Positions 13,404 through 17,665 of a DNA stretch of 64,000 nt are shown here, piece by piece. How positions within the stretch are numbered: the stretch's first letter is position 1; each line of letters opens with the position of its first letter. The notes beneath the pieces were generated by a model, which saw only the letters and a list, made by a program, of their open reading frames with translations, ran no database searches and had not been told where the DNA came from. This stretch comes from Escherichia coli (GTDB lineage Bacteria > Pseudomonadota > Gammaproteobacteria > Enterobacterales > Enterobacteriaceae): NCBI RefSeq assembly GCF_036507355.1, contig NZ_AP027877.1; one strand, 5' to 3'. Both the position numbers and the translations under genes were made by a program.

Positions 13404-14231
13404 TTACTTTTTCCAGAAATCATCGAAAACGGTAATTGGCGGACGGCGTTTATGTTCGGTTTTCAGATACCAGTTCTCTATTGTTCTGGCGACCTGTTCA
13501 GGTACGTTTTTCCCTTCCAGATAGTCGTCGATATTGTCATAGGTCACGCCGAGTGCCACTTCATCTGGCAGAGAAGGGCGATCATCTTCCAGATCGGCCG
13601 TTGGCGCTTTCTTATAAAGGTGTTCCGGGCAACCTAATGCCGCCAGTAACTGTTTACCCTGACGTTTGTTGAGACGATACAGCGGATTAATGTCCGTACC
13701 GCCGTCACCATATTTAGTGAAGAATCCGGTAATGGCTTCTGCTGCATGATCGGTGCCCACCACGACACCGCTGGTCATACCCGCAATGCTATATTGTGCT
13801 TTCATCCGCTCACGCGCTTTTTCATTGCCACGGACAAAATCGCTCAGTTCAATGCCTGCTTCCCGCAATGCCTGCTCGCTAGCCAATACCGCGCCCTTGA
13901 TATTAACGGTTAATACGCGATCCGGTTGAATAAAGGCAATGGCATCCTGGCAATCTTGTTCGTCGGCCTGAACACCATAGGGCAGGCGTACGGCAATAAA
14001 TTGCAGTGATTCGTTGCCGGTTTCCTGGCGCAGCTCATTAATCGCCATCTGGCACAGCTTTCCGGCAAGCGTGGAGTCCTGACCGCCGCTGATCCCGAGC
14101 ACCAGTGATTTAATGAACGGATAAGTTCGCAGGTAGCTTTTCAGAAAATCGATACTACGACGAATTTCCTCTTCAGCATTAATCTGCGGTTTTGCGCCCA
14201 GCGCCTTTATTATTTGTTGTTGCAATGTCAT
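13404..14231 (-). CDS. nadE: NH3-dependent NAD+ synthetase
   Basis: 275-aa [34 protein letters not shown]... with SGGQDS PP-loop motif. Confidence 0.95.
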
Positions 14232-14432
14232 TGAACCCCTCCAGACAGAAAAGACAAAACTTCCTTAAAGCTAACCCGTTGCCACTGAAACGACAAGCGA
14301 CAGCGGGCTGAATGGTGGTTAAAACGTCATACAGGAATCCTCTGAAAGCGGAGCCGTTTCGTTCATGGGCTTGAAAAAGCGCCCAATGTATTCCAGGCTT
14401 ATCTAACACGCTGATAAACAAGAGGACGGAAT

Positions 14433-14771
14433 ATGAACAAGAATATGGCAGGAATTCTGAGTGCAGCGGCGGTATTAACCATGCTGGCGGGTTGTACGGC
14501 TTATGATCGTACCAAAGACCAGTTTGTACAGCCTGTGGTGAAAGACGTCAAAAAAGGCATGAGCCGGGCGCAGGTTGCACAAATTGCGGGTAAACCTTCG
14601 TCTGAAGTGAGCATGATCCATGCTCGTGGTACTTGCCAGACCTACATCCTGGGTCAACGTGATGGTAAAGCAGAAACCTACTTTGTCGCGTTAGATGATA
14701 CTGGACATGTCATCAACTCCGGTTATCAGACCTGTGCTGAATACGACACTGATCCACAGGCTGCGAAGTAA
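14433..14771 (+). CDS. osmE: Osmotically inducible lipoprotein OsmE
   Basis: 112-aa ORF with lipoprotein signal (LAGC). Confidence 0.93.
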
Positions 14772-14804
14772 TCACTTCGTCTGAAAGCTTGAGTAACAAC
14801 GGAA

Positions 14805-14829
14805 ACCGGCCATTGCGCCGGTTTTTTTT
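14805..14829 (+). terminator. Rho-independent terminator after osmE
   Basis: aaccggc-cattgc-gccggtttttttt. Confidence 0.85.
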
Positions 14830-15069
14830 GGTCTGAGTTCTTAATTATCTTCGCGAATTATTTGCCCGAAATGTGAAGAGGGTCATAACCGCAGGTCAAG
14901 GAGAGACAATTTATAAGGTCAAAGAAATACTATTGCTCAGGTCTATACCGTATACTCCTTTCAGCCACAAAAAAAGTCATGTTGGTTTCGCAAGTTACCC
15001 AGAGCATGGAAGCAGGTTAAGGCTTGCGGAGTGTCTGGCTGACAGATAATCGTCGATGAGGGCAGTTTT

Positions 15070-15390
15070 ATGGAAAAGAAACACATTTATCTGTTTTGTT
15101 CTGCGGGCATGTCTACCTCTTTACTGGTATCAAAAATGCGCGCACAGGCAGAAAAATATGAAGTTCCGGTCATTATTGAAGCATTTCCGGAAACACTGGC
15201 TGGTGAAAAAGGTCAGAATGCCGATGTCGTGTTATTAGGGCCGCAGATTGCTTATATGTTGCCCGAAATCCAGCGTTTGTTACCCAACAAACCGGTTGAA
15301 GTAATTGACTCGCTGCTTTATGGCAAAGTCGATGGTTTAGGCGTGCTTAAGGCTGCGGTTGCAGCGATTAAAAAAGCCGCAGCAAATTAA
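15070..15390 (+). CDS. chbB: PTS chitobiose-specific EIIB component
   Basis: 106-aa [37 protein letters not shown]... Confidence 0.93.
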
Positions 15391-15474
15391 TTTATTTTAA
15401 ATTTTCCCGTCAAAGAGTTATTTCATAAATCAATACCGCAATATTTAAATTGCGGTTTTTAAGGGTATTTTTCT

Positions 15475-15631
15475 ATGAGTAATGTTATTGCATCGCTTGA
15501 AAAGGTACTCCTCCCTTTTGCAGTTAAAATAGGAAAGCAGCCACACGTTAATGCAATCAAAAATGGCTTTATTCGCTTAATGCCGTTAACCCTTGCGGGG
15601 GCCATGTTTGTATTAATTAACAACGTTTTTC
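15475..15631 (+). pseudogene. chbC: chbC 5' fragment (PTS EIIC), truncated by IS1 after about 52 codons
   Basis: My translation of the frame starting at 15475: [52 protein letters not shown], then runs into the IS1 left end and stops. Confidence 0.85.
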
Positions 15632-15686
15632 GGTGATGCTGCCAACTTACTGATTTAGTGTATGATGGTGTTTTTGAGGTGCTCCA

Positions 15687-15962
15687 GTGGCTTCTGTTTC
15701 TATCAGCTGTCCCTCCTGTTCAGCTACTGACGGGGTGGTGCGTAACGGCAAAAGCACCGCCGGACATCAGCGCTATCTCTGCTCTCACTGTCGTAAAACA
15801 TGGCAACTGCAGTTCACTTACACCGCTTCTCAACCCGGTACGCACCAGAAAATCATTGATATGGCCATGAATGGCGTTGGATGCCGGGCAACAGCCCGCA
15901 TTATGGGCGTTGGCCTCAACACGATTTTACGTCACTTAAAAAACTCAGGCCGCAGTCGGTAA
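15687..15962 (+). CDS. insA: IS1 InsA (transposition inhibitor / N-terminal part of InsAB' transposase)
   Basis: 91-aa [43 protein letters not shown]... Confidence 0.95.
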
Positions 15963-16384
15963 CCTCGCGCATACAGCCGGGCAGTGACGTCATCGTCTGC
16001 GCGGAAATGGACGAACAGTGGGGCTATGTCGGGGCTAAATCGCGCCAGCGCTGGCTGTTTTACGCGTATGACAGGCTCCGGAAGACGGTTGTTGCGCACG
16101 TATTCGGTGAACGCACGATGGCGACGCTGGGGCGTCTTATGAGCCTGCTGTCACCCTTTGACGTGGTGATATGGATGACGGATGGCTGGCCGCTGTATGA
16201 ATCCCGCCTGAAGGGAAAGCTGCACGTAATCAGCAAGCGATATACGCAGCGAATTGAGCGGCATAACCTGAATCTGAGGCAGCACCTGGCACGGCTGGGA
16301 CGGAAGTCGCTGTCGTTCTCAAAATCGGTGGAGCTGCATGACAAAGTCATCGGGCATTATCTGAACATAAAACACTATCAATAA
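15881..16384 (+). CDS. insB: IS1 InsB frame (expressed as InsAB' fusion by -1 frameshift)
   Basis: 167-aa ORF in the -1 frame relative to insA; canonical IS1 organisation. Confidence 0.9.
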
Positions 16385-16399
16385 GTTGGAGTCATTACC

Positions 16400-16894
16400 C
16401 AGAAAGTCGAGAAACAACTTTTTGAGCTGTATAAAAACCCGGAGTTGAAAGTTAAGCCGAAAGAACTGGAACAGCGCGGTGGGGCTTATTACTCTGATGC
16501 AGCGTGCGAAGTGATCAACGCTATCTACAACGATAAGCAAGCAGAACATTACGTTAATATCCCGCATCATGGGCATATTGATAATATTCCGGCAGACTGG
16601 GCGGTAGAAATGACCTGTACGCTGGGGCGCGATGGCGCGACGCCACATCCGCGCATTACGCATTTCGATGATAAAGTGATGGGGCTGATTCACACCATTA
16701 AAGGCTTCGAGATTGCTGCCAGCAACGCCGCACTTAGCGGAGAATTTAACGATGTGTTACTGGCGCTAAACCTTAGTCCGTTGGTGCATTCCGATCGCGA
16801 TGCTGAGCTGCTGGCACGCGAGATGGTTCTGGCGCACGAGAAATGGCTGCCAAATTTTGCCGACTGCATCGCAGAGCTTAAAAAAGCACATTAA
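16400..16894 (+). pseudogene. chbF: chbF 3' remnant (6-phospho-beta-glucosidase C-terminal third)
   Basis: Frame open from the IS1 right end: QKVEKQLFELYKNPELKVKPKELEQRGGAYYSDAACEVINAIYNDK...ELKKAH matches the C-terminus of a family-4 glycoside hydrolase; no N-terminal part present. Confidence 0.85.

Positions 16895-17665
<771 letters not shown>

Follow-up and report, generated by a model that had tools for sequence, protein, structure and literature searches.

Covariation points to a selected sense-RNA stem in the known ChiX decoy spacer between chbB and chbC

Upon induction of the chb operon by chitobiose, the spacer between chbB and chbC pairs with the Hfq-dependent small RNA ChiX (MicM) and promotes its decay, by which the chitoporin gene chiP is derepressed (PMC7815308; bioRxiv 2021.05.11.443692; PMC4474525; PMC4104026). 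The RIL-seq (PMC5145812) and iRIL-seq (PMC10703908) papers also describe this decoy role, the same decoy circuit has been demonstrated in Proteus mirabilis (PMC4355480), and chbC is a named ChiX target that is enriched in Hfq co-immunoprecipitation (PMC10710024). In the published model the chb transcript is processed and the spacer RNA is released (PMC4355480). The chb spacer is a textbook mRNA-embedded sponge for a bacterial sRNA, and attention has so far been directed to the ChiX-complementary site, to which the accessible literature credits the decoy activity. Locus and decoy role are therefore already known, and the hairpin described here had also been spotted earlier, as 'a likely important stem loop', in that literature only in the supplement of a 2026 preprint. 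The covariation evidence for the stem is a modest addition to this known locus.

The window, the whole stretch of DNA analysed, comprised 64,000 nt of Escherichia coli (RefSeq assembly GCF_036507355.1, contig NZ_AP027877.1). Its chbB-chbC intercistronic spacer, 84 nt at 15391-15474 (+), lies within the chitobiose operon at the position of the published ChiX decoy region and is identical at 84/84 positions to that of E. coli K-12 MG1655, where the RefSeq annotation has no feature inside the chbB-chbC spacer. Of 5426 complete E. coli genomes, 5407 contained a 231-nt sequence spanning the chbB/chbC junction, 5386 of them at an identity of at least 99%. The hairpin is therefore core E. coli sequence and is unconnected with the IS1 event described below.

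Pairing with ChiX was predicted with RNAduplex and by cofolding, utilizing the annotated K-12 ChiX (L082:405-488) as the query. The ChiX site at 15406-15426 (+), which the preliminary description of this DNA had missed, consists of CCCGTCAAAGAG (15406-15417) and ATTTCAT (15420-15426). ChiX CUCUUUGACGGG pairs with 15406-15417 and ChiX AUGAAAU with 15420-15426, giving a predicted duplex of 12 bp + 7 bp with the seed of K-12 ChiX; within the site, GTCAAAGAG was nearly invariant in alignment A1 (defined below). The site is preceded by a U/A-rich tract at 15391-15405 (+), a possible Hfq contact, and the U/A-rich composition at this position was retained in all orthologous spacers. It is followed, after a gap of 8 nt, by the stem-loop (15435-15456), which was still folded in the cofold with ChiX, then by 4 nt and the chbC Shine-Dalgarno sequence AAGGG (15461-15465, +), from which a 9-nt spacer leads to the ATG (15475-15477). 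AAGG and ATGAG were invariant in A1.

The stem-loop reads A15435-CCGCAAT / ATTTAA / ATTGCGG-T15456 on the + strand. Folding and covariation place the 5' arm at 15435-15442, the loop at 15443-15448 and the 3' arm at 15449-15456, giving a stem of 8 bp with 4 G-C pairs and a loop of 6 nt. The preliminary description had reported a hairpin with a T tract within the operon, between chbB and a truncated chbC, and both the sequence and the fold agree with this; its start had been given as 15436, one base off, and is corrected here to 15435, where the 26-nt string quoted at the time begins. Folded alone, the 36-nt segment gave -10.5 kcal/mol against a shuffle mean of -2.8 ± 1.9 (z = -4.1), and none of 200 shuffles folded as well. 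In the fold of the 84-nt spacer the stem was dominant in both the minimum-free-energy and the centroid structures. The T run comprises 5 T at 15456-15460 (+), was not conserved among genera and directly abuts the AAGGG; because T15456 may be taken up in a pair with A15435, the unpaired U number only 4-5. The motif was single-copy in the window. A scan of 14000-17000 against Rfam 15 gave no meaningful match, the two matches returned being at chance level (E above 0.6).

Other candidate pairings in the spacer were rejected. AAUACC (15432-15437) is a perfect complement of GGUAUU (15464-15469), and this pairing would hide the chbC Shine-Dalgarno sequence and compete with the hairpin, but it is specific to E. 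coli, without conservation beyond Escherichia, and was not kept in Citrobacter or Enterobacter. Pairing of CCC (15406-15408) with GGG (15463-15465), present in the minimum-free-energy fold, showed no consistent covariation among genera. The predicted duplex between CUUAAA at the 5' end of ChiX and UUUAAG at the Shine-Dalgarno sequence is a 6-mer match of a kind expected by chance between two 84-nt RNAs.

The operon around the spacer is disrupted in this window. chbB, encoding the PTS chitobiose IIB component, is intact at 15070-15390 (+), its 106-aa product being 100% identical to E. coli ChbB proteins. The truncation of chbC by IS1 stated in the preliminary description was confirmed from the sequence, the open reading frames and the K-12 annotation: only the first 157 nt of chbC remain (15475-15631, +), cut by a 768-bp IS1 at 15632-16399 (+), whose ends were read directly and which is annotated as IS1A family in matching E. 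coli records. On the far side lies a 3' remnant of chbF (16400-16894, +), annotated as celF in a matching record. The open reading frame at 16907-17665 occupies the position of chbG, and a 753-aa open reading frame on the opposite strand lies where katE is found in K-12; both are presumed to be these genes by position only. No target-site duplication was found around IS1 (flanks 15623-15631 and 16400-16408), which marks a deletion. Relative to K-12, about 3415 bp are missing, a size derived from K-12 coordinates, comprising chbC from nt 158, chbA, chbR and the 5' 858 nt of chbF. As IS1 is joined directly to mid-chbF without target duplication, an IS1-mediated adjacent deletion of ∼3.4 kb is implied. 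The chbC-IS1-chbF arrangement was reproduced in no record among the 5426 E. coli genomes; in strain MIN14, the single record examined more closely, IS1 interrupts chbC at a different position. Absence of the arrangement from the E. coli collection would, we presume, fit a Shigella-like lineage.

chbR is named as a transcriptional regulator in the K-12 annotation. ChbR is an activator, and induction of the chb promoter depends on it. The operon in the window is unable to function, and its chb promoter is probably not inducible; with chbA, chbR, most of chbC and the 5' part of chbF gone, the decoy is probably no longer inducible either. The hairpin in the window is an inherited relic of a dead operon, as opposed to a special terminator that arose from the IS1 event or bears on it.

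Conservation of the stem was assessed across orthologous spacers. A scan of one genome per species yielded 80 chbB loci, from which the spacers were extracted, and loci from Hafnia, two Klebsiella, Pantoea, Mixta, Providencia, a second Kosakonia and Vibrio were added. Alignment A1 contained 64 distinct sequences. Alignment A2 was based on a covariance model and contained 51 matches, one of them weak (E = 0.11) and outside the spacer. In A1 the 8-bp helix was paired in 93.8% of cells, compared with 18-56% when the 3' arm was slid by 1-3 columns. Both-sided changes were found in 5 of the 8 pairs (53 cells), and the observed covariation was reached by 0 of 500 column shuffles. In A2, which is biased toward structure by construction, 95.3% of cells were paired. 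Compensatory and G-U changes retained the stem over 50-64 distinct spacers from Escherichia, Citrobacter, Salmonella, Enterobacter, Klebsiella, Hafnia, Pantoea, Mixta and Proteus, and the loop sequences varied freely among orthologues. In A1, 25 cells held G-U pairs, which become A-C mismatches when read from the opposite strand; the structure is therefore one of the sense chb RNA and not of the DNA or of an antisense transcript. On this comparative evidence, base pairing in the sense-strand RNA, and not the U tract, is demonstrably under selection, which is both purifying and compensatory across Enterobacterales, and the covariation is the strongest evidence against a chance stem. Very probably, then, selection maintains the element as a sense-RNA stem within the known ChiX decoy spacer.

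The covariance model built from A1 gave exactly one match per chb locus in 50 loci, the sole extra match (E = 0.11) lying elsewhere in L085. Vibrio, Aeromonas, Providencia and the chiP/ChiZ leader gave no match, and the window contained just the one. Membership of a REP or other repeat family was rejected on this basis, the element having one copy in the window and one match per chb locus. AAGG lay 4 nt from the stem in almost every locus, the exceptions being Proteus and one Pluralibacter with 5 nt, whereas the distance from the ChiX site to the stem varied from 15 to 19 nt. In Aeromonas and Vibrio the spacers are 10-14 nt long with neither ChiX site nor stem, and the ∼70-nt module therefore appears as a unit in Enterobacterales. 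In Kosakonia oryzendophytica (L064) the stem and the Shine-Dalgarno sequence are kept and no ChiX seed is recognisable, and Providencia (L091) and the other Kosakonia sp. (L093) have unrelated spacers; the module of ChiX site and stem has been lost or replaced in some lineages. In Proteus the stem is weak, with 4-5 bp only.

Several orthologous spacers had features of their own. In the Hafnia alvei spacer the conserved stem is preceded by two ChiX-like GTCAAAGAG sites in tandem (L083 1873-1881 and 1889-1897), and this spacer may be a double decoy. The Klebsiella and Raoultella spacers (L084 1841-1890; L085, L048, L052, L054, L055) are ∼85 nt longer and carry an extra G-C-rich hairpin upstream of the ChiX site, e.g., GACGCCTGGCGGCTGCCTGTTGCCGGACGTC; a 38-aa open reading frame is called in this extra region in one annotation. 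A record titled Chryseobacterium sp. (L033) contains an Enterobacteriaceae-type chb locus with a ChbB 95% identical and a typical spacer, and is probably a contaminated or mislabelled assembly.

For the function of the stem, the reading we favour, tentatively and as a roughly even call, is that it serves, once transcribed, as a structural boundary and a barrier to nucleases. Exonucleases working 3'-to-5' would be halted there, and possibly RNase E in its scanning, so that the segment carrying chbB and the ChiX-binding site could persist as a defined, stable RNA, separated from the ribosome-binding region of chbC. Leaky termination at the U5 tail may play a minor part in Escherichia. In other sponge fragments predicted stems protect the ends, and 3' ends lie just downstream of the sRNA pairing sites, which fits the barrier. 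Against it, the constant distance of 4-5 nt to the Shine-Dalgarno sequence is not needed for such a role, the Proteus stem is weak and yet the Proteus decoy is functional when overexpressed (PMC4355480), and the stem is kept in K. oryzendophytica despite the lack of a recognisable ChiX seed. No experiment on stem function was found in the accessible literature; the published and synthetic decoy fragments examined all include the hairpin, and no deletion test was found among them. The selected stem next to the ChiX site offers a concrete and inexpensive hypothesis on what delimits or stabilises the decoy segment, and with it a rule for designing synthetic sponges.

A further reading, which we consider somewhat improbable, is that the stem defines the 3' end of a discrete, stable, sRNA-like sponge made of the chbB 3' region and the ChiX site. 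Leaky termination would produce this end in Escherichia and Klebsiella, exonucleases that trim as far as the stem would do so in other lineages, and this short RNA, not the full polycistronic chb mRNA, would be the real decoy. Were this true, decoy dosage would be uncoupled from chbCARFG expression.

Termination had been given a larger part in the preliminary description, according to which the hairpin would terminate most transcripts. This was unsupported: the U tract of 5 nt abuts AAGGG, the tail is not conserved, chbC, chbA, chbR, chbF and chbG lie downstream in the intact operon, and a reporter placed downstream of the element is expressed. [quoted passage not shown] Neither chbB nor chbC is listed in the Term-seq supplement of PMC7815308, as expected with chb not induced in the media used. 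The hairpin is probably not a strong transcription stop.

A leaky intrinsic terminator or attenuator, mainly in Escherichia, by which a fraction of transcripts would be released at the U run to give short chbB-plus-decoy RNAs and to lower chbCARFG relative to chbB, is judged unlikely as the main role of the stem. The element does have a stable, G-C-containing stem on the transcribed strand, with 7-8 bp and 4 G-C pairs, followed directly by 5 U. It also belongs to a class of sites that was strongly enriched in the window: the strict pattern (perfect stem of at least 7 bp, at least 4 G-C pairs, loop of 3-8, at least 4 T in the next 5 bases) gave about 8 distinct sites (15 nested hits) in 64 kb, compared with 0.57 hits per shuffle, so the class is non-random, and the other sites mostly resemble terminators at gene ends. 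Under a loose terminator rule, 13-20 kb showed no excess (10 found, 7.6 expected), and the chb site went uncalled on the + strand, the extended stem being followed by only 4 T. A d'Aubenton-Carafa-type score with modern energies was uncalibrated, rating the genuine osmE terminator equal to the chb site, and was kept only as a relative measure of the tail.

The tails themselves argue against termination as the conserved function. UUUU follows the stem in Escherichia (GCGG-UUUUU), Citrobacter amalonaticus, C. sedlakii, Klebsiella pneumoniae, Raoultella, Trabulsiella and some Enterobacter, but the first tail base toggles between T, A and C among close relatives. The tail is AUUU in the Citrobacter freundii group, C. 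koseri and Salmonella, AUUU or CUUU in most Enterobacter, Lelliottia and Leclercia, CAUU in Kosakonia oryzendophytica and one Enterobacter, AAUA in Buttiauxella, and AUUA or GUUA in Cedecea and Hafnia. In Pantoea (GUGC) and Mixta (GCGA) it is not a U tract at all, and the stem is retained; stems without any U tail were if anything stronger (-12 to -17 kcal/mol). The tails thus vary while the stem covaries. In length, too, the E. coli run falls short, with one of its 5 U pairable with A15435 and AAGGG directly after it, whereas published accounts of terminators describe U tracts of 7-9 nt (PMC3993855) or at least 7 T for Hfq-binding sRNAs (PMC5558911). For Escherichia the guarded reading of the preliminary description, an attenuator or processing site, is plausible, and stem and U5 would make a plausible weak terminator there.

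As unlikely as the leaky terminator is a role in chbC translation initiation, in which the stem base, at -19 from the AUG, would set the 5' edge of the ribosome-binding region (e.g., for 30S platform docking or a standby site) and would carry the repression by ChiX-Hfq, bound 8 nt upstream, over the distance to chbC. The near-constant spacing between stem and AAGG, set against the variable spacing between ChiX site and stem, the high conservation of the 3' segment TTTAAGGGTATTTTTCTATG and the naming of chbC as a ChiX target all speak for it. The constant spacing is not strong evidence of a geometric constraint, however, as a 4-nt gap is a small indel target and may be neutral. In 74 orthologous contexts the energy needed to open the ribosome-binding site or the ChiX site was computed for an intact, a disrupted and a deleted stem, and the effect on either site was not consistent; the median change in ribosome-binding-site accessibility was -0.01 kcal/mol with the stem disrupted and +0.59 with the stem deleted. 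A chance palindrome, or a site bound by a protein at the DNA level and without RNA function, is very improbable: loose-rule sites are not commoner than in shuffled sequence and, with 2 mismatches allowed, the motif has an expectation of 0.5 per window, but both half-sites are altered together by compensatory changes, the G-U pairs occur on the sense strand only, the pairing register is sharply defined, and a protein operator would keep base identity, not complementarity.

Compared with canonical intrinsic terminators, the element shares a G-C-containing stem-loop on the transcribed strand with T residues immediately after it. The osmE terminator of the same window (14801-14834), strong and canonical with a CCGGC/GCCGG stem, served as an internal comparator; it has 8 consecutive T and stands at a gene end, whereas the chb element, with 5 T, lies inside an operon and abuts a Shine-Dalgarno sequence, and its T run is not conserved.

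The sponge fragments ChiZ and SroC resemble the chb spacer in having an sRNA-pairing site and end-protecting stems. They arise by termination or processing, whereas a discrete chb RNA ending at the stem is undocumented in the Term-seq data, in which chb is not expressed. The K-12 chiP leader/ChiZ (L088 487-584) contains a U-rich tract, a hairpin and a ChiX site overlapping the Shine-Dalgarno sequence, the same kinds of part as the chb spacer in another order. Homology between the two was rejected, as the order of elements differs and the covariance model had no match there.

The REP sequences of malE-malF and the iscR-iscS structure, the latter acting in the RyhB-induced partial decay of iscRSUA, are intercistronic protective stem-loops that give differential stability within operons. 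The chb element resembles them in layout, as a stable stem in the first intercistronic region of an sRNA-targeted polycistronic mRNA whose upstream part could be retained; it differs in being a single-copy stem and not a REP, and in its order of sRNA site, stem and ribosome-binding site. The chbBC ChiX (MicM) decoy of E. coli, Salmonella and Proteus is the same locus, K-12 carrying the same 84 nt, and the hairpin lies inside the decoy fragment.
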